Shown in pieces: positions 14-53,199 of a stretch of 64,000 nucleotides of DNA. Numbering within the stretch: position 1 is the first letter of the stretch; every line of letters starts with the position of its first letter. The DNA is from an uncultured Actinomycetes bacterium (GTDB lineage Bacteria > Actinomycetota > Acidimicrobiia > Spongiisociales > ZC4RG35): NCBI GenBank assembly GCA_937989945.1, contig CALKIG010000047.1:14637-78636 (forward strand). The letters are read 5' to 3'. The position numbers were made by a program, and so were the translations under genes. Below the pieces are notes generated by a model, which saw only the letters and a program-made list of their open reading frames with translations, ran no database searches and was not told the DNA's origin.

Positions 14-1288
14 TTGACTTTCAGCCAGAACCAAACGGGAAGCTTGTCCCTGTCTGCGTGCTGTCGTCTTGCCAGAGTCGAGATCGCGACAGGAGCGATC
101 ACCGCGCTCACCGGGGCAGTGGGCGCGATCAGACCTGCATTGTCTCCTGACGGTGCCCTTCTTTCCTATGACAACCCAACCGGATTGTGGACAATGCCGT
201 CGGGAGGGGGCAGCCCCGTGCTCCGCGTCTTGAATGGATATGACTCGAGTTTCTCCCCCGACGGCGAATCTCTTGTTTACGTGATCAACGTCAATGGCCT
301 TCGGCGCCTTCGGACTGTGGACATAGATTCGGGCGTGGTTAGAACGCTGTTCTCGACGTCGGGTCAGATCGAATCCCCGAAATGGCGAGGAGGTCGCATC
401 TACTTCGTACACCACACCGGCTCTGGCTACGACGGGCGATCTGACGTCGAGCTCCGATCCATAACGACTTCCGGCACGGCGCTGAGAGTCGAATCGAGCT
501 ATGCCGATCAGAGAGTTGGTTTTGACGTCTTCGACAACAACGAGATTCTGTTCTACAGGTCTTCGAATGGTGACTTCAGCTACTTCGATATTGCGCCCGA
601 TGCCGCGTTGGGGTCGGCAATGGCATCAGGCTCCTACTCGGTGGGTTGGGATTCGATAACCGCCATTGATCTTCACGGCGATGGTCACGACGAGGTGTTC
701 TTCTACCGGCCCACGGATGGTGTCTTCAAGTATTACGAGACGGAGGCAGACGGTTCGCTCGGACCGGCTCTAGCCGACGGGACCTACTCGCTCGGTTGGG
801 ACTCGATAACTGCTGTCGACGTCGACGGCGACAGCCACGACGAAGTCATGTTCTATCGGTCGGCGGATGGAGTGTTCAAGTATTACGAGACCAAGCCCAC
901 TGGAGCGCTGGGGGCACTGCTGAGCTCCGGGAACTACTCGTTGGGATGGGACTCCATAACGAGAGTCGATCTCAACAGTGACGGTCGTGACGAGCTGCTC
1001 TTCTACCGATCTTCGGATGGGGTGTTCAAGTACTACGAGACCAAGGCGAATGGTTCTCTCGGTACTCTGCTGAGCTCCGGCACCTACTCCCTTGGTTGGG
1101 ATTCGATCACGAAGGTCGACCTGAACGGCGACGGCCTCGATGAAATGCTCTTCTTCAGAGCGTCCGATGGGACCTTCAAGTACTACGAGACGAAGCCGAC
1201 GGGGGCTCTTGGAACTTTGGTGAGCTCTGGGACGTATCGATCGGGATGGGACTTGGTGACCGCTATCCAGCTCGACGACCTCGGCTGA
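14..1288 (+). CDS. Secreted beta-propeller repeat protein, probably 5' partial. N-terminal PD40/TolB-like repeats (SPDGxLxY motifs) are followed by five 48-aa FG-GAP/VCBS-like blades (DEvFFYRssDGvFKYYet...GxYSLGWDSITxVDLdGDG).
   Basis: Reading frame is open back to nt 2. No signal peptide at the called start, so the gene probably continues upstream of the window. Five tandem 48-aa repeats are read directly from the translation. The DxDGDGxDE motif is Ca-binding-like. Confidence 0.6.
   Translation: MTFSQNQTGSLSLSACCRLARVEIATGAITALTGAVGAIRPALSPDGALLSYDNPTGLWTMPSGGGSPVLRVLNGYDSSFSPDGESLVYVINVNGLRRLRTVDIDSGVVRTLFSTSGQIESPKWRGGRIYFVHHTGSGYDGRSDVELRSITTSGTALRVESSYADQRVGFDVFDNNEILFYRSSNGDFSYFDIAPDAALGSAMASGSYSVGWDSITAIDLHGDGHDEVFFYRPTDGVFKYYETEADGSLGPALADGTYSLGWDSITAVDVDGDSHDEVMFYRSADGVFKYYETKPTGALGALLSSGNYSLGWDSITRVDLNSDGRDELLFYRSSDGVFKYYETKANGSLGTLLSSGTYSLGWDSITKVDLNGDGLDEMLFFRASDGTFKYYETKPTGALGTLVSSGTYRSGWDLVTAIQLDDLG
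541..1285 (+). repeat. Intragenic tandem repeat with a 144-nt period (5 copies) that encodes the 48-aa propeller blade. It is paralogous to the repeat at 2690-3420.
   Basis: Periodic translation FYR..DG.FKYY...G.YS.GWDSIT.VDLDGDG. The 38-nt stretch 1001-1038 matches 2849-2886 at 37 of 38 positions. Confidence 0.75.
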
Positions 1289-1351
1289 CCTATCACGCGT
1301 AGTCTCGCGTCAGTATCTCAAGACCGGCGATATCGATCCGATAGCTACATC

Positions 1352-3427
1352 GTGACTGTTCTAGACCGCAAAGCATGGCTCTCCGTCAGAGCCATGCTCC
1401 AGTCTCTGCTTGCTGGCGTCGTGCTTCTCGGTCTCATCGTTCCAGGGACCGCAGCCGCCAGCGAGCCGCCCCCGGATATAACTTTCGATGGCGCCGGGTG
1501 GGGTCACGGGGTCGGGATGTCTCAGTACGGAGCATACGGGATGGCGGTCGAGGGGCACACTGCTGACGAGATCATCTCGCATTACTACGCAGGTGCGTCA
1601 GTTGGAAGCTACGCAGCATCGCCGATCTGGGTCAATCTAGAGCGCGACTTCGAAGTGTTGCAGTTGACAGTTGGCGATGTCGGCGAGGGCGTGGGTGCTC
1701 CGGTCACGGTCACCGATGGAGCCACCGAAGTTCTTGCTGTCTCGGGTTCCACTATCGACATCGCAGCTTCTGGCACCGGCTGTGTGCTGACGGTGACAGC
1801 TCCAGAGGCCGCACCTGTGGTCCTCGATGATCCGGACTGCAGCATCGACATGCAGTGGTACGACTGGTCGACTGCCGGCACCGTGCCTACTACGAAGGTG
1901 ACCATCGTCGGATGCCTCTTGGCCGATTGGAACGTCTCGCCGACTATCCATCGACCTTGTGAATACGCAAGGGGAATGCTGCATCTCAGAACTGGCCCCG
2001 GAGGGCTGGATCTGTCGGCAGAAATGCTGATCGAAGACTATGTCGTGGGAACGTCGGAGATGCCCTACTCGTGGGACCAAGATGCTCTTCAGGCCCAGGC
2101 CATCGCTTCTCGCTCCTATGCGATTGGAAGACAACTAGATCGCGGCGACCCTGCGACGAACTCGTGTGACGGCTGGTGTCACGTCAAAGACAGCATCTCG
2201 GACCAGCGCTACGTGGGTTGGGGTCATTCAAATACCGGGCCATGGATAGCTGCCGTCCAGGCCACTGCCGGGGAGATAGTCAGCCACCCGTCTGCCCCCA
2301 ATGGAGTGGTCACGGCCTACTTCTCGTCATCTTCCGGCGGCTTGACTGAAAACGTCGAAGAGAAGTTTGGAGGGTCCCCAAAGGCATACCTCGTTTCGGT
2401 TGACGACAGCGTGGCCGTGGACGGGACGGTCTTCAATCCGAAGGCGTCATGGGTCACACCAATCGCGCATGACACCGTGGCAGCGGCGCTCGGGCTCGAC
2501 CTTCTGCTCGACGTCTCAATCGTCGACGTGAGGACGTCCGGGAGCGCGGCGATGCTCGAATTCAGCGGGCTCGACTCGGAGGGCGCTTACAAAGTGGTCC
2601 AGCAGACCGGCACCTGGACGCGCACTACTTTCGGGCTGTTCTCAGAGTGGTTCACTGTCGGATACCAGGCTCCGTTGCTCGAGTCAGACGAGATCTTTTT
2701 CTATCGCTCGTCTGACGGCACCTTCAAGTATTACAACACGAGCCCTGCCGCGAAGCTGGGGTCGCTGCTCAAATCGGGCCTCTACTCGCAAGGATGGGAC
2801 TCGATCACGGCCGTCGATCTCGATGGCGACTCTCAGGACGAGGTCTTCTTCTACCGGTCTTCGGATGGGGTGTTCAAGTACTACGACGTGAAGAGCGACG
2901 GAACCCTCGGCGCCCCGATCAAAACAGGCGTCTACTCGTTGGGCTGGGACTCGATTACCGCGGTGGATCTGGATGGGGACGCTCAGGACGAGCTCTTCTT
3001 CTACCGGTCGTCTGACGGCACGTTCAAGTATTACGACGTCAAGTCCACCGGAGCTCTGGGTGCGCCGATCAAGCAAGGCGTCTACTCGTTGGGCTGGGAC
3101 TCGATCACACGGGTTGACGTAGACGGCGATGGCCAGGACGAGTTCTTCTTCTACCGATCCACAGATGGCACGTTCAAGTATTACGACGTGACGGCCTCTG
3201 GCTCACTTGGCAACCTATTGAGCTCAGGCACGTATTCAGTCGGCTGGAGTGCAATCACGGCCGTCGACCTCGATGGCGATGAGCAGGATGAGCTCTTTTT
3301 CTACCGGTCGAGTGATGGGACCTACAAGTACTACAACGTGAAGTCAAGCGGCTCACTCGGAGCTCTCTTGAGCTCGGGCTTCTACTCCGTGGGATGGGAT
3401 TCCATCACCGCTCTGCAACTCGACTGA
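1352..3427 (+). CDS. Secreted SpoIID/LytB-domain protein fused to five C-terminal 48-aa FG-GAP-like beta-propeller repeats.
   Basis: N-terminal signal/TM segment (LLAGVVLLGLIVPGTAAA; alternative start at 1394). Contains the SpoIID/LytB hallmark GHGVGMSQYGAYGMA. The C-terminal 240 aa are five tandem copies of the same repeat found in the upstream gene. Confidence 0.7.
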   Translation: MTVLDRKAWLSVRAMLQSLLAGVVLLGLIVPGTAAASEPPPDITFDGAGWGHGVGMSQYGAYGMAVEGHTADEIISHYYAGASVGSYAASPIWVNLERDFEVLQLTVGDVGEGVGAPVTVTDGATEVLAVSGSTIDIAASGTGCVLTVTAPEAAPVVLDDPDCSIDMQWYDWSTAGTVPTTKVTIVGCLLADWNVSPTIHRPCEYARGMLHLRTGPGGLDLSAEMLIEDYVVGTSEMPYSWDQDALQAQAIASRSYAIGRQLDRGDPATNSCDGWCHVKDSISDQRYVGWGHSNTGPWIAAVQATAGEIVSHPSAPNGVVTAYFSSSSGGLTENVEEKFGGSPKAYLVSVDDSVAVDGTVFNPKASWVTPIAHDTVAAALGLDLLLDVSIVDVRTSGSAAMLEFSGLDSEGAYKVVQQTGTWTRTTFGLFSEWFTVGYQAPLLESDEIFFYRSSDGTFKYYNTSPAAKLGSLLKSGLYSQGWDSITAVDLDGDSQDEVFFYRSSDGVFKYYDVKSDGTLGAPIKTGVYSLGWDSITAVDLDGDAQDELFFYRSSDGTFKYYDVKSTGALGAPIKQGVYSLGWDSITRVDVDGDGQDEFFFYRSTDGTFKYYDVTASGSLGNLLSSGTYSVGWSAITAVDLDGDEQDELFFYRSSDGTYKYYNVKSSGSLGALLSSGFYSVGWDSITALQLD
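2690..3420 (+). repeat. Intragenic tandem repeat with a 144-nt period (about 5 copies). It is paralogous to the repeat at 541-1285.
   Basis: The translation shows DE.FFYRSSDG.FKYY(D/N)V...LG.....G.YS.GWDSITAVDLDGD repeated five times. Confidence 0.75.
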
Positions 3428-3434
3428 TAGCCCT

Positions 3435-3905
3435 CTAGCGGACGAGAAGCCGGATCGCCGAGGTGCCTCTGAAGGCCAGCGCCGTTGGAAGGTCGAAGAC
3501 ATCGAACACCACCAACTCCTCGACACCTTCAGCCTCTTCGAGAACGGCCAGTCGGTCAATCAAATAACTGTTGAGGGGATGAGCCTGCGCTTCGCGCATG
3601 GTCTCGTCGGTCTGCCGCCACAGTGACCTCACCTTCCTGGCCACTCTTTCGGCCAGTCTGCCGACGCGCGTCCCACCCCGCATCCAGGCCAGCAGATGGC
3701 GGCGCGCCGCCTGGCTTGCTCGAGTCGGATCCATCACCGCTGGTGAAGCAGACGTCGCATTGACGAGAGTGGTGTCGGGAAGGTCGAATTGGGCGAAGGC
3801 TCCCGGGTCGCCGGTGAAGATGACGTAGTCGTGGGCATCGTCCGCGGCGATGTATGCGGCGCAGGCGTTGGCTCTCAATGTCTGCGTGATGAGGGCTACC
3901 TTCAT
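3435..3905 (-). CDS. Hypothetical protein, 156 aa, the last gene of the minus-strand glycan operon.
   Basis: Its start overlaps the stop of the upstream GT4 gene (ATGA-type coupling). I recognise no domain. Confidence 0.4.
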   Translation of the reverse strand: MKVALITQTLRANACAAYIAADDAHDYVIFTGDPGAFAQFDLPDTTLVNATSASPAVMDPTRASQAARRHLLAWMRGGTRVGRLAERVARKVRSLWRQTDETMREAQAHPLNSYLIDRLAVLEEAEGVEELVVFDVFDLPTALAFRGTSAIRLLVR

Positions 3906-5086
3906 TACTCGATGACCCGGCGGTAGACATCGATGATTTGGCTGGCCACGTTCTCGGCAGCGAAGCGTTCCTCGACCATCGCCCTACCGGCCTGTGGGTC
4001 CAGCCGGGAAATGTCATCTCGTAGCGCCGCAACGCTTTCAGCGATCGCCTCTGGGGGCGTGTCGTTGTCGAGGAGTAGCCCGCAAGCCCGCTCGAGATCA
4101 CCCCAGGTCGACTCGGCCCCGCCATTACGCAGAGACACAACCGGAAGGCCCGATCCGATCGCTTCGAGTGTCGCAATGCCAAATGTCTCGAACGGGCTCA
4201 AGTGAACCAGTACGTCGGCGCCCTCAAAGAAGCCGGTGAGCTCATCGTGGGATCTTGGACCTGCGATTGTGACAGAGCCGGCGATGCCCGCTTGCGACGA
4301 GAATCTCTCGATGGTGGGGCGCAGCGGACCATCCCCAACAACAGTCAGGGTCGCGTTGGGGTCGTAGCTCGTTCGGTACTCGGCGAAGCTGGCGAGGAGA
4401 GCGTCGATGCCCTTGTGGGGCATGAGGCCCCCAACGTAAATCCATGCACTCAGTTTCGTCGTTTTCTTACGTAGGAAAGGCAGATCGGAAAGGTCGACGA
4501 TGTTCGGGATCACCTCGATTTTGTCACGAGCCAGACTGCCGAACGCTTCGATCAGGAGGTCGCGCAGGAAGCTGGATACGCAGATGAATGCCGACGATGC
4601 TTCGAGCGCCTCGCGATATGCCGATCTCGACTCGGGATGGCGCAGGATCTCTTGGAGTGTCGATTGATGTTCGGTGATCACGAGAGGGCTATCACCAAGG
4701 CGCACTGCGGCCCACGCCGTAGGGACACCGAGGTGGGCATGCGTCAGCTCTCCTCTCGGCGGGAGTATGCGACGCTTCAACTCGATCGCCGTGGCGAATG
4801 CTCGGGCCCGTCCCATCTGTCCCGAGCGCGCCGGGACCGGTGCCGGGATCCAGCGCGCACCGTTCTGGTCGTCATAGACGGCTTCGGGGTCCTCGCGTCC
4901 CAGGAAGGCCATCGATTCGTGGATGTTCTCCGGTATGGGCCCGCCCGGTGCCGGGTAGATCGTCGGAACCTCCACGTCGACGATCACGCCTCGAGAGCGA
5001 ACAGCTTCGACGCTTTTCTGAACGAAGATTCCGGAGTAGACCGAGTGTCGGCCGGGATACCAAGGTGTCACGAGATTCACATGCAT
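3905..5086 (-). CDS. Glycosyltransferase family 4 (GT-B fold, retaining).
   Basis: C-terminal GT1/GT4 signature (FFEGADVLVHLSPFETFGIATLEAIGSGLPVV). I place the start at the internal Met of MHVNLVTPWYPG (5086) rather than the ORF-track start 5191, which would overlap the upstream gene. Confidence 0.8.
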   Translation of the reverse strand: MHVNLVTPWYPGRHSVYSGIFVQKSVEAVRSRGVIVDVEVPTIYPAPGGPIPENIHESMAFLGREDPEAVYDDQNGARWIPAPVPARSGQMGRARAFATAIELKRRILPPRGELTHAHLGVPTAWAAVRLGDSPLVITEHQSTLQEILRHPESRSAYREALEASSAFICVSSFLRDLLIEAFGSLARDKIEVIPNIVDLSDLPFLRKKTTKLSAWIYVGGLMPHKGIDALLASFAEYRTSYDPNATLTVVGDGPLRPTIERFSSQAGIAGSVTIAGPRSHDELTGFFEGADVLVHLSPFETFGIATLEAIGSGLPVVSLRNGGAESTWGDLERACGLLLDNDTPPEAIAESVAALRDDISRLDPQAGRAMVEERFAAENVASQIIDVYRRVIE

Positions 5087-5090
5087 CTGG

Positions 5091-5582
5091 TCACGCCCTT
5101 GCGATTGGAGCATTCGGCCAGATCCGGGCAGCGTGCCAGGCCGCGGTTGCCGCGTGGTCATCGCAGTAGACAACCATGCCGGGCTCGACAAGAGACTGGA
5201 GGGCTCGGACCTGGCCCGATATGAGCCGCCAACTGAAGTAGCCTCGTGTCGCCGTGTTCAGCTTGCGGATCATCCTCGCCCAGAACGCCCATGGGTCCCC
5301 GCGGCTGGCTGAACGATTCTCGGCTTTGACCTGCGCCCGGACAGGCAGTCGATTCCTCTCGGCTGCGCTGTACCGAACCACGATCAACCCTTGTTCCATC
5401 AGTATTGGTCCGTTGGCTCCAGGTGACCATCCGTCGAACCAGATGACCTTCTCTCCTGAGCTGCTCCAAGTTTTGGCTCGGCCGACTGCGGAGTCGTAGC
5501 CCTTCTCGGTCACTCCACCAAGGAGTATGAATGCGCGGTCGAAGCCGGGCGTCGACGTGACCAGATCTTCGAGCGAGCTCAT
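5091..5582 (-). CDS. Hypothetical protein, 163 aa, lying between two GT4 genes.
   Basis: It fills the gap between the GT4 genes exactly, with 4-nt start/stop overlaps on both sides. I recognise no domain. Confidence 0.4.
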   Translation of the reverse strand: MSSLEDLVTSTPGFDRAFILLGGVTEKGYDSAVGRAKTWSSSGEKVIWFDGWSPGANGPILMEQGLIVVRYSAAERNRLPVRAQVKAENRSASRGDPWAFWARMIRKLNTATRGYFSWRLISGQVRALQSLVEPGMVVYCDDHAATAAWHAARIWPNAPIARA

Positions 5583-6886
5583 CGGCTCTCTTCGATCAGC
5601 TGAACCATTCTTGCCATTGTCACCTGACGGTCGAAGCTGCGCATAGCCTGTCTCACGAACTGAATGTCGTCGGAGCCCTGCTCCTTGCGGGCTCGCTCAG
5701 CGGCCCTCAAGGCGTTGGCAACGGATTGAACATTCGGGTTGGCCATTTGGGCCAGTGGATGGTCACCAGAGACACGCCGGGCGTCGCCGCCCTCTGCCTG
5801 GACGCACACCAATGGAATCCCGACTGCCATGGCTTCGTAGATCTTGCCACTGGTGACCAGCGGAGAGCCAGGGACCGGCACTATCACTACGTCGAGGGAG
5901 GCGTAGAACGCCGCCACTTCAGACTTCGAGACGGCGCCGATGAACTCGAAACCGTCTGCCTCACCCGGGAGGACGCGCTCAAGGGGCTCGGCGCTCTTGG
6001 CGAAGTATCCGAGGTGGCCACCCAGGATGAGCTTGCTTCCAACAGGTAGCTCATTCCGTACCACTCTCCAGGCCTGAAGAATCGGCTCCAGCGGCCATCT
6101 GTCATTCACGGTTCCGAGGATTCCAAAACGAAGCGGGCCGCCCGCGTATGTCGCTGGAGTGATGTGGACACTGTCTTGGTCGAATCCATTGAGAACGACG
6201 TGTTGTTTGTCGGCAGCGTCTGGATACTTCGTTGCGTAGGCCTCGGCGATGGCATCGTTCACGTGGATGCAGGAGGAGGCGCCGTCGACTATTCGCTTCT
6301 CGACCAGCTCGGTGCCGGCGGGCAGCCTCGCCCGATTGCCTGTGAATACGTCGATCGTCCACGGATCGCGAAAATCAACTGCGTACGGAATATCGAGCTC
6401 ATCGGCTATCCGTCTGGCGGCTTCAAAGGAGGAGAACGGGTTCCCCGTGGCTAGAACGTGGTCGAACTTCTCGCCGCGCTCGGCGATCGCGGCCACTACG
6501 GGGTCGATCCATGAGGAGTAGCTCTCCTCGAGTTCGGGCATCCGGGATGTGATTGGAGCCAGAAGGGAGTCTTTGATCGGTCCCATGAGGCTTCTCCAGG
6601 CCTGCCACATGACCGGGAAGTTGCCGCGAAAATGGCCCACCTCCCTCAGGTCCGGGTCGAAACTGAACGGCACCCGTTCGACTCTCGCAGCTGCGGGTAT
6701 CTCGGATAGCAGGGAGCGGTCGAGAGAGCCTATCTCGTTCTCCAGGAATCGTTCCGTCGTCGTCACAACGGTGACTTCCCACCCGGCCTCGACGAACGCT
6801 CGAGTCGTTGCGAGCGCACGATAGACCCCCGAAGCTCTCGACGGCGGGTACCAGAAAGCTATGTACAGAAGGCGTCGCGAGGTCAT
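5579..6886 (-). CDS. Glycosyltransferase family 4.
   Basis: N-terminal GT4 domain (LLYIAFWYPPSRASGVYR) and a C-terminal E..E motif region (SGKIYEAMAVGIPLV). There is a 4-nt overlap with the ABC ATPase gene. Confidence 0.8.
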   Translation of the reverse strand: MTSRRLLYIAFWYPPSRASGVYRALATTRAFVEAGWEVTVVTTTERFLENEIGSLDRSLLSEIPAAARVERVPFSFDPDLREVGHFRGNFPVMWQAWRSLMGPIKDSLLAPITSRMPELEESYSSWIDPVVAAIAERGEKFDHVLATGNPFSSFEAARRIADELDIPYAVDFRDPWTIDVFTGNRARLPAGTELVEKRIVDGASSCIHVNDAIAEAYATKYPDAADKQHVVLNGFDQDSVHITPATYAGGPLRFGILGTVNDRWPLEPILQAWRVVRNELPVGSKLILGGHLGYFAKSAEPLERVLPGEADGFEFIGAVSKSEVAAFYASLDVVIVPVPGSPLVTSGKIYEAMAVGIPLVCVQAEGGDARRVSGDHPLAQMANPNVQSVANALRAAERARKEQGSDDIQFVRQAMRSFDRQVTMARMVQLIEESR

Positions 6887-7680
6887 CCCTCGGCGATCAT
6901 GCGGTCAAGCTGTGCCCGCTCCTTCGCGGTTTTTTGGAAGTCCTCGTAGGCGGCCGTGACCTCGTTGACCTCACCGGTCATCCGGATCTGGCCTTGGTGT
7001 AGCCAGATTGCTTCGGTAGCCATCTCGGCCACGAGCGAAGAAGAGTGAGATACCACCACGATGGTCTGCGCCTCATTGCACATGTCTTTGACCTTCTGAA
7101 CTGCCTTGCTCCGGAAGGAGGCATCACCAGCGGATAGTGCTTCGTCGATCAGCAAGATCTCCGGGTCCACATGCGTTGCCACGGCAAAAGCCAGCCGTCC
7201 GAACATTCCGGAGCTGTACGTTGTGGTCGGGAGGTCTATGAACCCGCCGATGTCGGCGAACTCGATTATCGACTCTTGCTTGTCGCGTACTTCGTCCATG
7301 CTCATTCCCGCCGCCAGACCGCCCAAGATGACGTTCTCGCGTCCGGAGAGCTTTCTGTTGAAGCCCATCCCCGGGGCAAGGAGATGCGGACGGCCCCAAA
7401 GGTCGATTTGTCCCTGTGAAGGCTTCAAAACCCCTGCAATCGTCTTGAGCAGCGTGGACTTGCCCGCCCCATTGCCCCCCACGAGACCGACGGCACTTCC
7501 GGACTTCACGTTGAAAGAGACATCCTTAACAGCTTCGATGTCTCGTTTACGGGTGTGCTTCTTGAAGGGCGACGTGCGCTGGTGTCGCGGTATCTCGACG
7601 ACTGCCGAGTAGGAGACGGACAGGTCGGTTACGCGTATCGCGTCAGTTCCGGACTGCAAAATCATCCTCCCTCGCAACAA
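6883..7680 (-). CDS. ABC transporter ATP-binding protein of the polysaccharide/teichoic-acid export type (Wzt/TagH/KpsT-like).
   Basis: Walker A GGNGAGKST, ABC signature YSSGM, Walker B LLIDEALSAGD. It is adjacent to an ABC-2 permease. Confidence 0.85.
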   Translation of the reverse strand: MLRGRMILQSGTDAIRVTDLSVSYSAVVEIPRHQRTSPFKKHTRKRDIEAVKDVSFNVKSGSAVGLVGGNGAGKSTLLKTIAGVLKPSQGQIDLWGRPHLLAPGMGFNRKLSGRENVILGGLAAGMSMDEVRDKQESIIEFADIGGFIDLPTTTYSSGMFGRLAFAVATHVDPEILLIDEALSAGDASFRSKAVQKVKDMCNEAQTIVVVSHSSSLVAEMATEAIWLHQGQIRMTGEVNEVTAAYEDFQKTAKERAQLDRMIAEG

Positions 7681-8587
7681 AAATCAGGAATCCGACTATC
7701 ACGGCGCCAATAGCCCATGCCGTGAAGACACCTATCTGACCGACGATGCTCGGCCCACCAGCTTCCAGCGGGCCGCCAAAAGCAATCGTCCAGGCGGTCA
7801 TCCCTGAAAACATCGGATTCCATCTCGCGATCATTTCGAGCGTCGAGGGCCCAAGCACCTGGGTGTACTCCCAGATGGCGGGCGATAGATAGAGCCACAG
7901 CCTCAGGGCGTGGGGCAGTAGCCGTGAGATGTCTCGGATGTAGACGTTGAGCACGGCGAACAGAAGAGACAATCCAAATCCGAAGAGCGACGTGATGACT
8001 ATCAGGACGGGAATCCAGAGCATCTCTATGTGGATCCCTCGCTGTGCGAGGAAGTGGATCGGAACGTAGGCAATCAACGAACGGAGAAAGAGGTTCACGG
8101 AACTGATCGCAGACGCGAACGGAAGCACCACCCTCGGTATGGCTGACTGTGAGAGCAGACCCGCAGCTGCGTTCTGGATCGTGCCGACCCCCGTTGTGAT
8201 CGTCCCTGAGAAGAACATCCAGACGTAGAGGTTCCCGACGATCAGGGCAAGGCGCTCGGCGTCGCCGAGGCCGCCGGCCAGTATCCCGACGAAAATGAAG
8301 TAGATAACTCCAAAGAGGAGCGGGTTGAGCACGTGCCACGCTCGCCCCAGGACCGTCTCGAAATTCCGGGCCTTTATGTCCGCTTTGGACCAGTACCACG
8401 CAAACGTCCGATACCGGAACGCTTCCGAGAGGTAATCGCCGAGGGGAGGCAACCCGAGGGCGGTGGTCCGGCGCGAAATAGGGGGATTGGTGTCTTCGGT
8501 AGTTGCAGCGTCCACTAGTCGTCGATTGTGGGAACGGCCGCATGTTAGCGGTCCCCCGGACGCATGCTCAGGTGAGCCGCCGAGCAA
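7643..8587 (-). CDS. ABC-2 type transporter permease (Wzm/TagG-like). The start is uncertain.
   Basis: N-terminal ABC-2 motif region (FRYRTFAWYWSKADIKARNFETVLGRAWHVLNPLL) followed by six hydrophobic segments. A GTG alternative start lies near 8515. Confidence 0.75.
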   Translation of the reverse strand: MLGGSPEHASGGPLTCGRSHNRRLVDAATTEDTNPPISRRTTALGLPPLGDYLSEAFRYRTFAWYWSKADIKARNFETVLGRAWHVLNPLLFGVIYFIFVGILAGGLGDAERLALIVGNLYVWMFFSGTITTGVGTIQNAAAGLLSQSAIPRVVLPFASAISSVNLFLRSLIAYVPIHFLAQRGIHIEMLWIPVLIVITSLFGFGLSLLFAVLNVYIRDISRLLPHALRLWLYLSPAIWEYTQVLGPSTLEMIARWNPMFSGMTAWTIAFGGPLEAGGPSIVGQIGVFTAWAIGAVIVGFLIFVAREDDFAVRN

Positions 8588-8594
8588 CCCTTGG

Positions 8595-9641
8595 CTATGA
8601 GATGTGCCCCGCTACCGCTTCGACGATCGCCTCGGCTGCCTTGCCTTCGCCGTAGGGATTACCTCTGTCGCCCTCCGGCATCCGGATGACCAGTTCTGCA
8701 AGGCGACTCAGCTCTGAGCCCGCAAGCACGTTCCAACCGCCCTCGAGAGTTTCTGGCCATTCGGTCTCGTCACGAAGCGTCGTGCACCGAGTTCCGAGAA
8801 TGAAGGCCTCCTTCTGCAAGCCACCTGAGTCAGTGATCAGCCCCTCGCTATCGCTGACGACCTTGAGCATCTTGGAGTACGGCAAGGGGTCGCGCACGAA
8901 GACATTCGCAGGAACCGGCACCTGGTGGCGATCGAGGTAACCAGCCAACCTGGGGTGAGCCAAGAGATGAACCGGCGAGCCGATCTCTCCCAATGCGGAC
9001 ATTATCGAGCCGAGTCTCTCCGGGTCGTCGGTGTTTGATGGCCGGTGAATGGTTGCCACGTGGTATTCGCCTCGGGCCCATTCCGGTTGTGCAACATCGT
9101 CGAGGTTGACGGAGATCAAGGCGTCGACCATCACATCCCCGGTCAGGGTCGATCGGTCCGACAAGCCTTCGTTTCCGAGATGCGCCATGGCCAGTTCTGT
9201 TGGAGCTAGAAGCAAGTCGCTCAGATGGTCGGTTGCGACGCGATTGAGTTCCTCCGGCATCTCGCGGTTGAACGAACGCAAGCCTGCTTCGACGTGCGCT
9301 GTGAACACATGTAGCTTGGTCGCCGCAAGGGCGGCTGCCACGGTCGAGTTGGTATCTCCATAGGTGAGAACCGCATCCGGACGCCGATCGAGGATGAGGT
9401 CTTCGATTCCTTCGAGCATCCTTGCCGTCTGTGCACCATGCCTGTCTGAGCCGACGCCGAGATTCACGTCAGGGTCTCGAAGGCCAACGTCTCTCATGAT
9501 GGCGTCGGACATGAGGTCGTCGTAATGCTGACCCGTGTGGACGAGGGTCTCGTCGATACCCGCTCGCTGCAAGGCTCGGCTCACCGGTCCTGCCTTGATG
9601 AATTGGGGGCGAGCTCCTACGACGTTCATGACTGACGGCAT
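8595..9641 (-). CDS. wecB: UDP-N-acetylglucosamine 2-epimerase, non-hydrolysing (WecB/MnaA/WbpI family).
   Basis: N-terminal VVGARPQFIK and the HVEAGLRSFN...PEELNR motif typical of the family. It is the first gene of the minus-strand operon. Confidence 0.8.
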   Translation of the reverse strand: MPSVMNVVGARPQFIKAGPVSRALQRAGIDETLVHTGQHYDDLMSDAIMRDVGLRDPDVNLGVGSDRHGAQTARMLEGIEDLILDRRPDAVLTYGDTNSTVAAALAATKLHVFTAHVEAGLRSFNREMPEELNRVATDHLSDLLLAPTELAMAHLGNEGLSDRSTLTGDVMVDALISVNLDDVAQPEWARGEYHVATIHRPSNTDDPERLGSIMSALGEIGSPVHLLAHPRLAGYLDRHQVPVPANVFVRDPLPYSKMLKVVSDSEGLITDSGGLQKEAFILGTRCTTLRDETEWPETLEGGWNVLAGSELSRLAELVIRMPEGDRGNPYGEGKAAEAIVEAVAGHIS

Positions 9642-9774
9642 CCCGGCAATCTATTTCCGCCCGGCTGACTCGCCAAGTTTTGCAACCTAGGGTTCACTGT
9701 CACACATTGGCGGTGCTCTACCGGTATCCTCCGGCTGCCGACCAGGCTTCGTCGCCTACGATCCAGGTGAGCCA
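9642..9774. promoter_or_regulatory. Divergent intergenic region that probably holds promoters for the wecB-ABC-GT operon (minus strand) and the wbpDEBA-like operon (plus strand).
   Basis: 133-nt non-coding gap between the divergently oriented first genes of two multi-gene operons. I could not pick out specific -35/-10 boxes with confidence. Confidence 0.3.
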
Positions 9775-10353
9775 ATGAGGGCCGACACAGCAGATATCGA
9801 CACGCGCGCCCAGGTCGCCGACTCTGCGCGCATATGGCATCTCGCCCAGGTACGGGAAGGTGCCGTCGTCGGCGAGAATTGCATCGTCGGCCGAGGCGCG
9901 TACATCGACGCCGGCGTAGAAGTCGGCGACAACTGCAAGATTCAAAACAACGCACTCATTTACGCTCCGGCGGTACTCGAGGACGGTGTCTTTGTGGGGC
10001 CTGCTGTCGTCTTTACCAACGACACTTTTCCTCGGGCCATAAATCCGGATGGGTCTCTCAAGGCCGCCGCCGATTGGGAGGCGAGAGGCGTCACGGTGCG
10101 CCGCGGTGCCGCGATCGGGGCCCGCTCTGTGGTACTCGGCGGCGTTGAGGTGGGAGAGTGGTCGCTCGTTGCTGCCGGCTCGGTAGTCACCAAAGACGTT
10201 CCCGCACATGCTCTCGTGCGAGGTGTGCCGGCGCGGCAGGTGGCATGGGTTGGGTTCAGCGGACGCGTCCTCGAAGTCGATGGCAGCGATTTGGTCGACC
10301 CTGCTGACGGCACGAGGTTCTTTGAGAATGGAGAGAGGTTGAGCAAGAGATGA
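9775..10353 (+). CDS. Left-handed beta-helix (hexapeptide-repeat) sugar N-acetyltransferase, WbpD/WlbB-like.
   Basis: Hexapeptide repeats (NCIVGRGAYIDAGVEVGDNCKIQNNALI). It is translationally coupled (ATGA) to the downstream aminotransferase. Confidence 0.75.
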   Translation: MRADTADIDTRAQVADSARIWHLAQVREGAVVGENCIVGRGAYIDAGVEVGDNCKIQNNALIYAPAVLEDGVFVGPAVVFTNDTFPRAINPDGSLKAAADWEARGVTVRRGAAIGARSVVLGGVEVGEWSLVAAGSVVTKDVPAHALVRGVPARQVAWVGFSGRVLEVDGSDLVDPADGTRFFENGERLSKR

Positions 10354-11417
10354 TCATTCTGTCCAAGCCGTCGATCGGCCAAGAGGAGATCGATGCGGTG
10401 ACCGAGGTCTTGCGGAGTGGCATGCTCGCCGGGGGAAGGAGGGTGATCGAGTTCGAGTCTCGCTTCGCCGACATGGTCGGGGTGGCTCATGGCGTTGCGC
10501 TGGGAAGCGGCACCGCGGCTCTCCACATCGGGCTTCTTGCGGCTGGAATAGGCCCCGGTGACGAGGTCATCGTGCCGTCCTTCACCTTCGCTGCTACAGG
10601 CAACTCCGTCCGAATGGTGGGGGCGGAGCCGGTTTTCGTCGATGTCGATCCGGTTGACTTCACGATTCATGCAGATGCGATCAAGCCTGCGATAACCGAC
10701 AAGACCCGGGCGGTGATGCCTGTCCACCTTTACGGGCAGATGGCTCCGACGGACGGGATCATCGAGCTTGCAGACACACACGGCATCGATGTCATCGAAG
10801 ATGCCGCACAGGCCCATCTCGCCAGAAGCGGAAGCCTCACGGCGGGCGCGGCAGGTCGGTTTGGGGCTTTTTCCTTCTACCCGACCAAGAACATGACCAC
10901 GGGCGAGGGTGGAATGATCACGACCGACGACACCGAATTGGCCGAACGGGCGAAGATGCTGCGCAACCAGGGGATGTCAGAGCGATACGTACATCCGATG
11001 GTTGGGCTCAACGAGAGAATGACGGAGATCGAGGGGGCAATCGGACTCGTCCAGCTCGGCAAGGTGGAGGAGTGGACCGACCGACGACGCGAAATCGCGT
11101 CGACTTACGATGACAGGCTCGACCCGGCCCTGGGCCTCCCGACGGAGCGTGCCGACGCCTACCACGTCTATCACCAATACACGCTGTGCCCGCCCGATCG
11201 GAAACCGATCGCTGCAGCTCTCGAAAACGCCGGGATCGGCTTTGGCGTCTACTACCCGGCAGGAACGCACGAGCAGGCACCCTACCGCGGTCCTGACTAC
11301 CAGCTGCCGGTGACCGAGGATCTCGCCCGCCGGGTGATTTCGATCCCGGTTCGACAAGATCTCACCGATTCCGAGATCGACCTGATCGTCGAGACCCTGA
11401 ACGCCGCGGTGGCATGA
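10350..11417 (+). CDS. DegT/DnrJ/EryC1/StrS-family PLP-dependent sugar aminotransferase, WbpE-like.
   Basis: Family motifs FSFYPTKNMTTGEGGMITTDD and the Lys-containing region. ATGA overlaps on both sides. Confidence 0.85.
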   Translation: MIILSKPSIGQEEIDAVTEVLRSGMLAGGRRVIEFESRFADMVGVAHGVALGSGTAALHIGLLAAGIGPGDEVIVPSFTFAATGNSVRMVGAEPVFVDVDPVDFTIHADAIKPAITDKTRAVMPVHLYGQMAPTDGIIELADTHGIDVIEDAAQAHLARSGSLTAGAAGRFGAFSFYPTKNMTTGEGGMITTDDTELAERAKMLRNQGMSERYVHPMVGLNERMTEIEGAIGLVQLGKVEEWTDRRREIASTYDDRLDPALGLPTERADAYHVYHQYTLCPPDRKPIAAALENAGIGFGVYYPAGTHEQAPYRGPDYQLPVTEDLARRVISIPVRQDLTDSEIDLIVETLNAAVA

Positions 11418-12379
11418 TGCGTTTCGGTCTTGTTGGTCTTGGTCAGATGGGTCGTCACCATGCCCGGATCCTCTCGACGTCTGATGACGTCGAATTCGTA
11501 GGGGCTGTCGATCCGATGGGCGATCGCCACAATGCGATGCGGTCGGGTGAGGTCTTCGAGACGGTGGATCAGCTCCTCGAACGTGGGCTCGACTGCGCCG
11601 TCGTGGCAGTGCCAACGGCTCAGCACCACGAAGTGGCCATGAGGTTCGCCGCCGAAGGCATTCACACTCTCATTGAGAAGCCGCTCGCAGAGTCTGTGGC
11701 CTCGGCCAAGGAGATCAGCAGCGCATTTGCCCACAGCGGACTGCTCGGCGCCGTAGGCCATGTGGAGCGTTTCAACTCAGGTCTTCAGGAGATGAAGAGG
11801 AGGCTTGCCGGCGGTCAACTGGGTCGGGTCATTTCCATCGCCACCGAGCGCGTCGGTCCTTTCCCCAAGCGAATCAGCGATGTCGGAGTAGTAAAAGACC
11901 TTGCCACACACGACATCGATATCGTGACATGGATCGGGGGTGCCCCGTTTGCGACGGTCTCAGGTCAAACCGCGCACAAGATGGGGCGTCCACATGAGGA
12001 CCTGGTCGTCGCAACCGGTCGTCTCGAAAACGACGTGGTCGCCTCGATGACGGTCAATTGGCTGAGCCCGGTCAAGAAGCGGAACGTCACGGTCCTCGGT
12101 GAGAAGGGGGCCTTTGTTGCTGACCTCCTCACCGGAGAGCTCAAATTTCATTCGAATGCCGAGGTAGTGGACAGTGAGTGGGATCAGCTTGCGATCATGC
12201 GCGGCGTCAGTGAGGGCGACACCATCGTCTACGCCTTTCCGAAACGAGAGCCACTTCAGGTCGAGCACGAGGCCTTTCGCGAGGCTCTGGACAAGGGTCA
12301 CGCCGAAGGGGTCGTGACGCTCGATGAGGGAGTTGCGATTCTTGAGGTGGCTCAGGCGATAATCGGAGACGCGAAATGA
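11414..12379 (+). CDS. Gfo/Idh/MocA-family NAD-dependent sugar oxidoreductase, WbpB-like.
   Basis: N-terminal Rossmann motif GLVGLGQMGRHH and the EKPLA motif. It is coupled to its neighbours. Confidence 0.8.
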   Translation: MMRFGLVGLGQMGRHHARILSTSDDVEFVGAVDPMGDRHNAMRSGEVFETVDQLLERGLDCAVVAVPTAQHHEVAMRFAAEGIHTLIEKPLAESVASAKEISSAFAHSGLLGAVGHVERFNSGLQEMKRRLAGGQLGRVISIATERVGPFPKRISDVGVVKDLATHDIDIVTWIGGAPFATVSGQTAHKMGRPHEDLVVATGRLENDVVASMTVNWLSPVKKRNVTVLGEKGAFVADLLTGELKFHSNAEVVDSEWDQLAIMRGVSEGDTIVYAFPKREPLQVEHEAFREALDKGHAEGVVTLDEGVAILEVAQAIIGDAK

Positions 12380-13680
12380 ACGTCTCAGTAATTGCACTTG
12401 GCAAGATCGGGCTGCCACTTGCGGTGCAGATTGCGTCGAAAGGCCACCACGTATTGGGTGCCGACATCTCGCCAAAGACCGTGGCTCTGGTGAATTCAGG
12501 TGAGGTCCCGTTCCCTGGAGAAGCTGATCTCGACACCAGGCTGTCTCAGGTCGTGGACAACGGGTTCCTGGTCGCGACCACCGACACAGTCGAGGCGGTC
12601 TCTCAGTCCGAGGCCGTTGTGGTCGTCGTCCCCCTGATGACCGATGAGAACGGCGAGCCCGACTTCGGTGCCATGGATGCAGCCACTAAAAGCATCGCGG
12701 CCGGGCTGAAGCCTGGGACCCTCGTCTCATATGAGACGACTCTGCCTGTCGGGACGACACGCGATCGGTTCGGCCCGGCACTGGAGCAGCACTCAGGTCT
12801 CGAAGCAGGGCGTGACTTCTACCTGGTGCACTCACCGGAACGCGTTTTCAGCGGCCGGATATTTGCCGACCTGAGAAGGTACCCCAAGCTCGTCGGGGGA
12901 ATCGACGAGGAGTCCACCAAACGTGGCGTCGAGTTCTATGAGGCGATCCTCGACTTCGACGACCGGCCGGACCTCGTGCGAAGGAACGGTGTTTGGGCGA
13001 TGAACTCCGCCGAGGCAGCCGAGCTGGCGAAGCTTGCTGAGACGACATACCGCGATGTCAACATCGCTTTGGCCAACGAGTTCGCCCGGTTTGCGGAGTC
13101 GGCCGGCATCGACATCGGTGATGTCATCGAGGCCTCCAACAGTCAACCTTTCTCTCACATTCACCGACCGGGAGTGGCAGTTGGCGGTCATTGCATTCCG
13201 GTTTACCCGAGGTTCTACCTGGCTGGTGATGAAAACGCGCGTCTCGTGGAAACGGCTCGAGAGGTCAACCTCGACGTGCCGAGACGTGTTGTCGAGAGCG
13301 TTGCCAAAGAGCTGGGCGGCCTCGACGGAAGCCGTGTTCTGGTGCTTGGAGCGGCCTATAGAGGTGGTGTCAAAGAGACTGCCTACTCAGGCGTCTTCCC
13401 TCTCGTCGCGGAGATCAAGGGTAGTGGTGGGGTGCCAATGGTCTCGGATCCCCTCTACACAGATGAAGAGCTCTCGGCACTGGGTCTGGAGTCGTGGGAC
13501 GGCGAAGAGATCGACGCCGTGATCGTTCAAACCGACCATGCGGATTATGGGAGTTTGGTCGCTGACGACCTGCCCGGAGCGAGGATTGTCTATGACGGAA
13601 GAGGGATCCTCGACCCCGCTCATTTCGGGGACGAGTCGCCACGTCTGCGAGTCATCGGACGGGGAGCAAACACACGTTGA
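12376..13680 (+). CDS. UDP-N-acetyl-D-hexosamine 6-dehydrogenase (UDP-glucose/GDP-mannose dehydrogenase family; WbpA/WecC-like).
   Basis: N-terminal NAD-binding VIALGKIGLPLAV and a catalytic-Cys region (GGHCIPVYP). It is the last gene of the coupled four-gene operon. Confidence 0.85.
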   Translation: MNVSVIALGKIGLPLAVQIASKGHHVLGADISPKTVALVNSGEVPFPGEADLDTRLSQVVDNGFLVATTDTVEAVSQSEAVVVVVPLMTDENGEPDFGAMDAATKSIAAGLKPGTLVSYETTLPVGTTRDRFGPALEQHSGLEAGRDFYLVHSPERVFSGRIFADLRRYPKLVGGIDEESTKRGVEFYEAILDFDDRPDLVRRNGVWAMNSAEAAELAKLAETTYRDVNIALANEFARFAESAGIDIGDVIEASNSQPFSHIHRPGVAVGGHCIPVYPRFYLAGDENARLVETAREVNLDVPRRVVESVAKELGGLDGSRVLVLGAAYRGGVKETAYSGVFPLVAEIKGSGGVPMVSDPLYTDEELSALGLESWDGEEIDAVIVQTDHADYGSLVADDLPGARIVYDGRGILDPAHFGDESPRLRVIGRGANTR

Positions 13681-36165: not shown

Positions 36166-37067
36166 CCCCGGAGTATTTCCTCGCCGAGTCTTCGTGCCGC
36201 GGCCGCTTCGACGATGCGCGTGTCGTGCGGCTCAACCGCTACCGAGCCCGAGTGAGACGCAGGGTCGCCGGCATCGGCAACATCGATGATCAGTCGATCG
36301 ATCAGCCCCTCGTAGGCCTCGAGCACTCCGCGTGTGCCTGGGGATAGACCGAGCGAGCGCATGACCCTGTCGGCCGGGCCTTTCAGCGCCTTGCCTCCAA
36401 ACAGCGGACTGATGGCGACGACGTTCGGGTGGCGTCTCACCTCCTCCCTCACGCCCTGAACCGAGAGGATGGGCCAGATCGAGAGAGGTGGGTTGGAGGG
36501 TCCAATGATGACTGTATCGGCTTCCCTGATCGCTTCGACCACGCCCGGTGCGGGCGTCGCTGAGCCGGTGAACTCCAACCCTACGACGGTCTCGCGATGT
36601 TGGCGGATCACGAAGTAGTCCTGGAAGCTGAGCACTTCACCGGACTCGATCTGCACCAGCGTCCGCAGCGAATCATCAGTGACCGGGATGACAGCGCAGC
36701 CGATGCCGAGTCGGTCGACGATCTCGCTGGTGAATTTGCTCAGCGAGACTCCCGACCTCAGTGCCGCCGTGCGCAGGATGTTGATAGCCAGGTCCTTGTC
36801 TCCGAGCTGAAAGCGGTTATCCACGCCGAACCTCTCGAGCTCCGTATTGGTCACGAAGGAGTCGTCCGCCCTGCCCCAACCCTGTGTGCCTTCGAGGCCG
36901 GCCATCGTATAGACGACGGTGTCCAGATCCGGCGAGACGTGGAGACCGTGAATAACGTCATCGTCGCCAACATTGACGACAATGGTCAGGTCTATGCCCG
37001 GGATTTGGCTCAAACCCCTGGCCAGGCGGGCTCCTCCCACACCACCAGAAAGCTCGACGACTCTCAA
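36162..37067 (-). CDS. cofD: 2-phospho-L-lactate transferase (F420 biosynthesis, CofD/FbiA).
   Basis: N-terminal LSGGVGGARL motif and CofD family features. Confidence 0.85.
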   Translation of the reverse strand: MRVVELSGGVGGARLARGLSQIPGIDLTIVVNVGDDDVIHGLHVSPDLDTVVYTMAGLEGTQGWGRADDSFVTNTELERFGVDNRFQLGDKDLAINILRTAALRSGVSLSKFTSEIVDRLGIGCAVIPVTDDSLRTLVQIESGEVLSFQDYFVIRQHRETVVGLEFTGSATPAPGVVEAIREADTVIIGPSNPPLSIWPILSVQGVREEVRRHPNVVAISPLFGGKALKGPADRVMRSLGLSPGTRGVLEAYEGLIDRLIIDVADAGDPASHSGSVAVEPHDTRIVEAAAARRLGEEILRG

Positions 37068-37109
37068 GATGCTCCTTCGATATTGCTCAGCAAACCGCTC
37101 CGGTTAACA

Positions 37110-42106: not shown

Positions 42107-42283
42107 ATGGACTGCCCCCAGTGCTCAACACCTGATGTGATTGAAATCGACCAGACTTTGCCCGACGGCCAGCAAGTCCGTTTCTTCTCATGCCATCACT
42201 GTGAGGAGAAGTGGTGGACCCAGGGCGACAAGGAGGTCGACCTGAGTCAGATCCTGGAGATGGTCCGCGAACACAAGGCGTGA
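42107..42283 (+). CDS. Small zinc-ribbon protein of 58 aa (CPQC...CHHC).
   Basis: Two CxxC pairs separated by 25 aa. The start could lie upstream, because the ORF is open from 41927. Confidence 0.4.
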   Translation: MDCPQCSTPDVIEIDQTLPDGQQVRFFSCHHCEEKWWTQGDKEVDLSQILEMVREHKA

Positions 42284-42309
42284 GCCTGCTCAGCCGTTTG
42301 AGGCCCAAC

Positions 42310-50580: not shown

Positions 50581-53199
<2,619 letters not shown>

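Follow-up and report, generated by a model that had tools for sequence, protein, structure and literature searches.

What is the purpose of a tandem-repeat domain that is shared by neighbouring, otherwise different secreted proteins of one bacterium? The question is raised by a stretch of 64,000 nucleotides (nt) from an uncultured member of the Acidimicrobiia (contig CALKIG010000047.1 of assembly GCA_937989945.1), called the window in the following, whose first two genes, gene 1 and gene 2, carry such repeats at their 3' ends. An earlier note, written from the sequence alone, had suggested that the repeats may target peptidoglycan remodelling to a specific envelope ligand. Judging from sequence comparisons and a structure prediction, the feature is a lineage-specific five-bladed FG-GAP-like propeller that is portable on secreted wall enzymes. 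With moderate confidence, we further propose that each array of five repeats of 50 amino acids (aa) is a self-contained propeller of ~250 residues that serves as a lectin-type module for non-covalent retention in the cell wall.

The repeat module and its predicted fold

The two genes and their repeat arrays are located as follows:

2-1288, + strand: gene 1, truncated at its 5' end by the window edge (frame open to base 2); secreted PD40 beta-propeller protein with the C-terminal module of five 50-aa repeats
539-688, 689-838, 839-988, 989-1138, 1139-1285 (together 539-1285), + strand: repeat array of gene 1, five 50-aa blades, period 150 nt in Tandem Repeats Finder
1352-3427, + strand: gene 2, secreted SpoIID/LytB-family enzyme of 691 aa with the C-terminal module of five 50-aa repeats, 100% identical to public cluster P0001
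2687-2836, 2837-2986, 2987-3136, 3137-3286, 3287-3424 (together 2687-3424), + strand: repeat array of gene 2, five 50-aa blades, predicted five-bladed beta-propeller

Tandem Repeats Finder reports arrays with a period of 150 nt at 689-1253 and 2777-3408 (72-74% matches, scores 382-632), which bears out the five tandem repeats that the earlier note had seen at the end of both genes. Its repeat consensus is also correct as written, but the repeat length is 50 rather than 48 aa, and the repeats are far from near-identical, with pairwise identities of 47-84% at the protein and 54-77% at the DNA level. A tblastn search of the 64-kb window yielded no further copies of the module.

Both modules exceed the gathering cutoff of FG-GAP_3 (PF13517; 26.9 bits), with 44.1 bits for gene 1 and 42.4 bits for gene 2, and gene 1 additionally matches FG-GAP (PF01839; 32.3 versus 22.1 bits). 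Between the repeats, the sequence D-L-D-G-D-G-Q-D-E conforms to the integrin calcium motif D-x-[DN]-x-[DN]-G-x-x-[DE]. In each gene, four of the five repeats are followed by such a loop, some of which deviate at a single position, while the last repeat stops just before it. In gene 1, the loops read DLHGDGHDE, DVDGDSHDE, DLNSDGRDE and DLNGDGLDE. The assignment to an FG-GAP/VCBS-type repeat with calcium-loop motifs, already made in the earlier note, is thereby confirmed. That note had also allowed for a match to a well-described family with a known role; a Pfam family is indeed matched, but one to which no single role is assigned.

To describe the blade, we used an alignment of 30 modules from different fusion proteins, comprising 150 blades. 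In these, residues D44, D48 and E2 of the putative calcium-binding loops are 84-100% conserved. E2, Y6 and G11 are invariant, Y16, G31, Y33, W37, I40 and D48 are at least 93% conserved, and the most variable positions are 8-9, 17-23 and 32-35. R7, D10, Y33 and W37 are near-invariant in each blade and stand beside highly variable positions (8-9 and 34-35), as expected of five equivalent sugar sites.

An AlphaFold2 (AF2) model of gene 2 aa 437-691, built with this alignment, is all-beta, with 20 strands, four per repeat, and high confidence values (predicted local distance difference test, pLDDT, 93.1; predicted template-modelling score, pTM, 0.88). In a Foldseek search of the PDB with this model, all 442 significant matches listed are beta-propellers. 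The five-bladed propeller that the earlier note expected is thus also what the model predicts. Going by FG-GAP topology, the final SITAL strand would close the ring by pairing with the first blade, and one face, the top face, would bear the conserved R, D, Y and W residues. With five repeats in both genes, the module does not match the seven-blade count of integrin alpha chains or of lectins of the Psathyrella velutina lectin (PVL) type. Five repeats are likewise found in ~50 of 120 homologues and four in a few, and homologous modules on other fusion proteins nearly always have five repeats of 49-51 aa each.

Membership in LysM_OapA (PF04225) was rejected as an artefact, although the two genes score 43.7 and 46.6 bits against a cutoff of 22.3. 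These matches are repeated partial hits to profile positions ~45-83, covering roughly the final 25-40 positions of the profile, inside the repeats at 539-1285 and 2687-3424, and are a likely source of false 'LysM-like' annotation.

Fusion partners and the neighbouring glycopolymer locus

The module is carried not by two adjacent genes, as the earlier note had it, but by three consecutive ones. Contigs that carry gene 2 match the window over 13.4 kb at 99.80-99.86% identity, and the third gene is found just left of the window on one of them, L001 (99.86%; window coordinates are L001 coordinates minus 8607):

L001 6086-8227, directly upstream of gene 1: amidase gene, encoding a secreted protein of 713 aa that combines Rv3811_N, Amidase_2 and RTX-like repeats with the same module of five repeats

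In the studied genome, the module is therefore found on amidase, PD40 and SpoIID genes. In a related genome, L009, it occurs on M23, GSDH, amidase, PD40 and SpoIID proteins, and in another, L008, on M23 and VanY proteins. Across the Acidimicrobiia, the partners other than SpoIID comprise Amidase_2, Peptidase_M23, VanY, VanW, trypsin-like proteases, PD40 and GSDH; the module is C-terminal in most of these fusions and N-terminal in those with VanW. Among the 90%-identity clusters listed in a search with gene 2, ~40 show the SpoIID plus FG-GAP_3 architecture, and those that are named derive from metagenome-assembled genomes of Acidimicrobiia, with generic annotation only. The earlier note's description of this architecture as unusual is therefore apt for bacteria at large but not for the Acidimicrobiia.

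In a scan of one genome per species, relatives with at least 40% identity are almost confined to the Acidimicrobiia; Ilumatobacter yielded no more than a 118-bp hit. A hidden Markov model (HMM) search of 1.84 billion representative sequences gave 156 proteins at E ≤1e-30 and 10,575 at E ≤1e-3, the latter figure reflecting the broad FG-GAP superfamily. Partner domains in the 60 best representatives are M23 (6), CAP (5), subtilase (3), trypsin (3), Amidase_2 (3) and SpoIID (2), next to VanW, VanY, GSDH and a phage-type lysozyme.

Where the repeats are missing, the closest SpoIID relatives (40-48% identity) have C-terminal SLH domains (30.9-44.7 bits versus a cutoff of 20.8). Likewise, at locus L041 of a 3.7-Mb genome, neighbouring genes for GSDH, an M15 (VanY-like) peptidase and SpoIID all encode SLH, and this trio adjoins a UDP-sugar dehydrogenase and a GT4 gene. 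SLH domains bind secondary wall polymers, not peptidoglycan. The finding that the same enzymes carry either SLH or the propeller is the strongest argument for the propeller doing the job of SLH, namely non-covalent anchoring to a wall polymer. As a separate observation, one M15 peptidase of L041 (7860-9995) has both an FG-GAP_3 repeat (30.1 versus 26.9 bits) and SLH; it may represent an intermediate in an anchor swap. Our literature searches on FG-GAP with SpoIID, with amidase, or with wall binding and peptidoglycan hydrolase returned no relevant description, and a 2019 review of wall hydrolases catalogues wall-binding domains without FG-GAP or any propeller (PMC6403190).

The earlier note had placed its gene pair at the edge of a glycopolymer locus. 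The genes actually lie inside it: upstream of the amidase gene, there are genes for a GT4 glycosyltransferase and for a conserved 636-aa protein (L001 2732-4642, + strand), and downstream of gene 2, Pfam and NCBIfam families on the called genes, including short open reading frames (ORFs) and an ATP-binding cassette (ABC) transporter, delimit the following:

3435-8587, - strand: glycopolymer assembly and export block
3435-3905, - strand: 156-aa ORF
3905-5086, - strand: GT4
5091-5582, - strand: 163-aa ORF
5579-6886, - strand: GT4
6883-7680, - strand: Wzt/TagH-like ABC ATPase
7643-8587, - strand: Wzm-like permease
8595-13680: nucleotide-sugar gene set of the UDP-ManNAc3NAcA type (predicted)
8595-9641, - strand: WecB-type 2-epimerase
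9775-10353: hexapeptide N-acetyltransferase
10350-11417: DegT aminotransferase
11414-12379: GFO/IDH/MocA 3-dehydrogenase
12376-13680: UDP-sugar 6-dehydrogenase

The order of a SpoIID-module gene and a GT4-Wzt-Wzm block is found in all seven loci with a downstream flank, at 47-65% catalytic-domain identity. In the nucleotide-sugar set, which is followed by one more glycosyltransferase, NCBIfam matches are TIGR00236 (262 bits versus 210), TIGR03026 (301 versus 190) and NF040723 (E 3e-62, below its cutoff). Its five enzymes are of the types of utrH/J/A/B/D in the teichuronic acid cluster of Streptomyces griseus, which are assigned to UDP-ManNAc3NAcA synthesis (PMC13274773), and they would presumably form the same pathway here.

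Further genes recur around the module. The 156-aa ORF, the 163-aa ORF and the 636-aa protein are conserved in related loci (27-52% identity) but match no Pfam family; the annotation of the corresponding gene in L004 and L009 includes a Methyltransf_21 domain. A MauE-like gene and four small genes without Pfam family form a conserved block upstream of module genes in several genomes (upstream flanks of L004, L005 and L006). Near module genes in L005, L008 and L009, there are genes for sulfate activation (PAPS reductase, CysN-like GTPase, APS kinase) or for a sulfatase, which may hint at sulfated wall polymers.

What the module may bind

Which ligand would such a module recognize? The top PDB fold match of the gene 2 module model is 9oee_A (UmbA4; E 1.8e-8; TM-score by query length, TMq, 0.59), with 21% identity compared with 8-17% for the other matches, and the same chain is also the top match of the full-length gene 2 model. 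This structure shows UmbA4 of Streptomyces coelicolor, a six-bladed propeller lectin with conserved calcium-type loops, bound to the teichuronic acid of S. griseus, a [ManNAc3NAcA-GalNAc]n polymer; UmbA lectins also include twelve families of five-bladed propellers (PMC13274773). We regard this model-based match as suggestive but not decisive. In profile searches of the PDB, the nearest solved proteins are 8w20, a 'secreted esterase' (E 3.5e-6), and CRTAC1 (E 8e-6), both FG-GAP-like; 8w20 is an unpublished entry, for which a literature search found no paper. Neither 9oee nor PVL was recovered by the profile searches of the PDB with the module, a single-blade profile had no match there, and phmmer with the module gave nothing significant.

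The spread of fusion partners, the replacement by SLH, the conserved synteny and the fold match to UmbA4 together make it the best-supported reading that the module directs peptidoglycan remodelling towards an envelope ligand. The earlier note is in this respect supported by context and fold, whereas the binding itself is what we infer. Specifically, the module is most likely a calcium-dependent lectin anchor for a wall glycopolymer, with direct peptidoglycan binding as the main rival. After Sec export of the enzymes that bear it, the module, with its four integrin-type calcium loops, would bind a repeating wall glycan and so keep the attached enzymes on the cell's own wall for peptidoglycan remodelling. 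At the studied locus, it would hold the Amidase_2 enzyme, the PD40-propeller protein and the SpoIID-type glycan-strand cleaver, and elsewhere in the lineage enzymes such as M23, VanY, VanW, a trypsin-like protease and GSDH. As its ligand, we consider most likely the polymer made and exported by the adjacent GT4/GT4/Wzm-Wzt locus, which in the studied strain is predicted to be teichuronic-acid-like and to contain ManNAc3NAcA. Of the enzymes held there, the amidase would probably strip stem peptides first, and SpoIID would then cut the denuded strands.

We are more tentative about a wider proposal, to which we give less than an even chance: that Acidimicrobiia use an unrecognized class of wall anchor that reads their own teichuronic-acid-like polymer and replaces SLH on a set of surface enzymes, and that the amidase-PD40-SpoIID trio is a polymer-addressed machine for splitting peptidoglycan, similar to SpoIID/SpoIIP.

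Several observations weigh against a polymer-specific lectin anchor. Generic seven-bladed propellers nearly equal 9oee in E-value (3.5e-8 versus 1.8e-8), UmbA4 itself is six-bladed, and a sequence link to it was detected with neither the five-blade nor the single-blade profile against the PDB. Both ring closure and the top-face placement of the conserved residues are deduced from topology, and the four-repeat variants (P0008, P0056 and P0081; the amidases of L009 and L010) are not explained by a closed five-blade model. In distant representatives, CAP, subtilase and other partners unrelated to the wall suggest that the module may be a general extracellular binding domain. Moreover, many module genes (M23, VanY, GSDH, VanW) lie away from any polymer locus, and the ManNAc3NAcA precursor genes are not conserved beside the block, with L005 and L006 differing. 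Since the block is kept in seven of seven loci while the precursor genes vary, the conserved link is to the export and assembly block and not to one sugar.

The main rival is that the propeller binds peptidoglycan strands directly, through GlcNAc or MurNAc, and that the proximity of the glycopolymer locus reflects a general clustering of envelope genes. FG-GAP-type propeller lectins of the established class PropLec7B bind GlcNAc and calcium, and the five-bladed tachylectin-2 binds GlcNAc as well (PMC11186620). Peptidoglycan is the target of most close fusion partners, the candidate binding residues shared by all five blades would suit a uniform repeating glycan, and the module genes remote from polymer genes fit this explanation, too. 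However, sister lineages exchange the module for SLH, by general knowledge a binder of secondary polymers, the SpoIID gene adjoins the Wzm/Wzt block at every one of the seven loci, and no Tachylectin or peptidoglycan-binding Pfam family matches at E up to 1. We consider direct peptidoglycan binding rather unlikely. No other lectin Pfam family matches at this threshold either, and a tachylectin-2-like five-bladed lectin was rejected as a candidate, being absent from both the Pfam matches and the top 50 fold matches.

A second alternative is that the propeller does not bind glycans at all, but is a platform for protein-protein contacts or self-association, or a calcium-stabilized structural domain, that gathers amidase, PD40 protein and SpoIID. 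Beta-propellers are common scaffolds, most fold neighbours are scaffolding WD40-like proteins, the three genes are consistently adjacent, and there is some homogenization of modules within genomes (the module of the L005 amidase is 69% identical to that of the L005 SpoIID versus 55% to that of the amidase of the studied genome). Yet the module also occurs, at either terminus, on unlinked M23, VanY, VanW, GSDH and trypsin proteins, which is better explained by an address tag; the interchange with SLH points to wall anchoring; and the conserved Tyr, Trp, Arg and Asp of each blade are typical of sugar sites. This alternative is improbable to a high degree.

Finally, offensive secreted lysins with a lectin domain aimed at the wall polymer of competitors, as in lysostaphin-type bacteriocins or umbrella-toxin lectins, would fit the best fold match, a lectin for interbacterial targeting, and the resemblance of the M23, amidase and trypsin fusions to bacteriolytic enzymes and the UmbA architecture, but this is very improbable given the absence of UmbB, UmbC or immunity-like genes from the locus, the housekeeping-type partners (PD40, VanW, VanY, GSDH), the conserved placement within the cell's own polymer synthesis locus and the ordinary chromosomal surroundings (PBP1, SecA, acyl-CoA carboxylase). 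A search for phage lysin relatives found none; the fold search of viral proteins gave only generic propellers, with TM-scores of ~0.5.

Retention of enzymes on a wall polymer would matter beyond this locus. Wall-binding modules decide where autolysins and surface enzymes act, and they are reused in surface display, diagnostics and engineered lysins; their catalogue (LysM, SLH, CWB1/2, SH3b, SPOR, ChW, PGB) includes no propeller. To our knowledge, almost nothing is known about the envelope of the Acidimicrobiia, an abundant and mostly uncultured group of soil and water, so that a defined 250-residue module and a locus for its predicted ligand offer a testable entry into their wall chemistry. 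If true, the proposal would tie self-anchoring to the binding of teichuronic acid recently described for propeller lectins of actinobacteria. In its wider form, a type of glycan that serves Streptomyces umbrella toxins as a receptor would here be an address label for self proteins. If the module is only a generic extracellular FG-GAP domain, the finding shrinks to a lineage-specific domain shuffle.

The carrier enzymes, their history and known counterparts

Two further features of gene 2 describe the enzyme to which the module is attached:

1352-1465, + strand: predicted signal peptide (aa 1-38: basic n-region, LLAGVVLLGLIV core, AAA/SE cleavage region), read from sequence
1478-2686, + strand: SpoIID/LytB catalytic region (aa 43-445), circularly permuted relative to Firmicute SpoIID (phmmer against 4rwr)

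The SpoIID domain named in the earlier note is well supported by PF08486 (51.3 bits versus 23, E 1.9e-13) and TIGR02669 (143.6 versus 83.3 bits). An orthologue of sporulation SpoIID is ruled out by the score for TIGR02870 (108.1 bits versus a cutoff of 234.75) and by the non-canonical order of segments; the host lineage is not known to form spores. In a phmmer comparison with SpoIID of Bacillus anthracis (4rwr), gene 2 aa 45-84 correspond to chain residues 278-317 and aa 226-393 to residues 67-232. Gene 2 thus begins with a GHGVGMSQ/HYY segment (aa 45-84), followed by a beta-rich insert of ~140 aa and the PF08486 core (aa 218-393). In 4rwr and 5i1t, the GHGVGMSQ...HYY segment is C-terminal. 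The insert contains four invariant cysteines. In the full-length AF2 model (pLDDT 83), confidence falls below 50 for aa 1-7 and for aa 17-37, and residues 6-22 form a lone helix; a fold search with this model is dominated by propeller matches and added nothing on SpoIID.

E236, in an S-E-M-P motif, is invariant across 24 orthologues and aligns with the Glu of the A-S-E-M motif in 4rwr, which we take to be the counterpart of E88 in B. subtilis. In B. subtilis SpoIID, E88 is essential, and the enzyme digests glycan strands after an amidase has stripped the peptides (PMC6635528). This order of action fits the presence of an amidase gene in the same cluster.

Upstream of position 14, the frame of gene 1 continues without a stop, so the gene is cut by the window edge; on L001, its full-length form (8270-9895) encodes 541 aa with a signal peptide and the PD40 propeller. 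PD40 (PF07676) is matched by the full-length protein with 49 bits (cutoff 20.9, E 5.2e-13) and by the truncated copy with only 16 bits, and FG-GAP_3 is matched by the full-length protein with E 6e-11. By these profile matches, the product is a PD40/Tricorn_N-type propeller. The 'TolB-like' label of the earlier note holds for the propeller but not for orthology to TolB, which is ruled out (TIGR02800, 23.1 bits versus a cutoff of 343.15).

In the amidase, RTX-type calcium-binding nonapeptide repeats (HemolysinCabind, E 9e-12; aa 411-442 and nearby) lie between Amidase_2 and the propeller, so that one secreted enzyme has two different putative calcium-dependent elements. Within its repeat array (L001 7478-8224), repeats 2 and 3 agree at all 150 nt (100% identity), and repeat 4 reaches 91%; in the sister assembly L002, the amidase has four repeats instead of five (663 versus 713 aa). 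Either the gene has undergone a recent internal duplication and varies in copy number, or the repeats were collapsed in assembly.

The earlier note had suspected gene conversion or recent duplication between gene 1 and gene 2, on the basis of a short shared tract:

1001-1038, + strand: short shared DNA tract in gene 1, encodes FYRSSDGVFKYY, matches 2849-2886 at 37/38 nt
2849-2886, + strand: partner tract in repeat 2 of gene 2, matches 1001-1038 at 37/38 nt

We reproduced this match exactly. When synonymous codons were resampled with the proteins held fixed, this level was reached in 0.15% of trials (P ~0.0015) by the best window of 38 nt across all 25 in-register repeat pairs. The tract is also present in the repeats of the upstream amidase gene, with a 35-nt exact run against repeat 2 of gene 2, and the shared tracts that remain are short (29-35 nt). 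The 37/38-nt match may thus stem from a short conversion event or from ancestral sequence that was retained. At identical residues, codon identity between gene 1 and gene 2 is 47%, compared with the 43% that codon usage predicts and with 46-51% among the repeats of either gene; with a value this near to expectation, broad recent exchange between the two genes is ruled out, and of the suspected conversion a short tract stands at most. Going by nucleotide identity, the truly recent duplication is the one within the upstream amidase gene, not one between the window genes.

Across genomes, module identity follows the fusion partner in part, as the amidase modules of two genomes are 80% identical. 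In L005, however, the amidase module is closer to the SpoIID module of the same genome, as given above, and in L006, the PD40 module shares 70% identity with the L006 amidase module and 61% with the PD40 module of the studied genome. This partial clustering by genome suggests either some homogenization within genomes or co-adaptation to a shared ligand. The idea behind the earlier note finds partial support in L005 and L006, though not in gene 1 and gene 2 themselves.

The genes in the rest of the window are ordinary chromosomal ones, such as those for a class A penicillin-binding protein with PASTA domains (20809-23367), SecA (50581-53199), carboxylases including acyl-CoA carboxylase, and methylmalonyl-CoA mutase. 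Among the ten large window ORFs scanned, there are no SLH, LCP or sortase genes. Two large ORFs lack a Pfam family (36597-39869, + strand, 1090 aa; 42211-44640, + strand, 809 aa), and a DUF5719 protein (39644-41152, + strand) is encoded beside them.

How does this system compare with known ones? The SpoIID-SpoIIP machinery of endospore formers and the septal SpoIID of Chlamydiales resemble it in that a SpoIID-family enzyme is encoded together with an amidase and the candidate catalytic Glu is conserved. By contrast, the studied system has Amidase_2 in place of SpoIIP, a permuted SpoIID order and a score below the spore_II_D cutoff (108 versus 235), and a propeller, not a membrane scaffold, would keep its enzymes in place.

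Among propeller lectins, PropLec7B (e.g. PVL) and FG-GAP_3 proteins share with the module the Pfam score and the DxDxDGxxD/E loop between strands, whereas the module differs in its blade number (five, not seven), in its fusion to enzymes of the bacterial wall, and in a strict 50-aa period with an unusually conserved FFYR..DG.F(K/R)YY plus GY..GWD.IT signature. Tachylectin-2 (PropLec5A; five-bladed, 5 x 47 aa, binding GlcNAc/GalNAc) is similar in its five short tandem blades and in the multivalent lectin role proposed here, but the module has no Pfam Tachylectin match, a different repeat signature and calcium loops. UmbA4, the best PDB match, is likewise an actinobacterial secreted propeller with calcium-type loops, and its ligand contains ManNAc3NAcA and GalNAc, while genes of the UDP-ManNAc3NAcA type adjoin the genes studied here. 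It differs in having six blades with diverged pockets and in targeting other species within a toxin particle, whereas the studied module has five near-uniform blades on the cell's own wall enzymes; no sequence homology between the two was detected, and the TMq is only 0.59.

Lastly, the module can be compared with SLH, CWB2, choline-binding repeats and LysM. Unlike SLH, it is an unrelated beta-propeller and not a three-helix-based, trimer-like fold, it has calcium-loop motifs, and its wall binding is a prediction. What it has in common with all of them is that a non-catalytic module built of repeats is found on many secreted wall enzymes of one organism, and that some of the genes carrying it, those of the SpoIID/PD40 cluster, adjoin genes for a wall polymer; with SLH in particular, it is swapped on orthologous SpoIID, GSDH and M15/VanY proteins.

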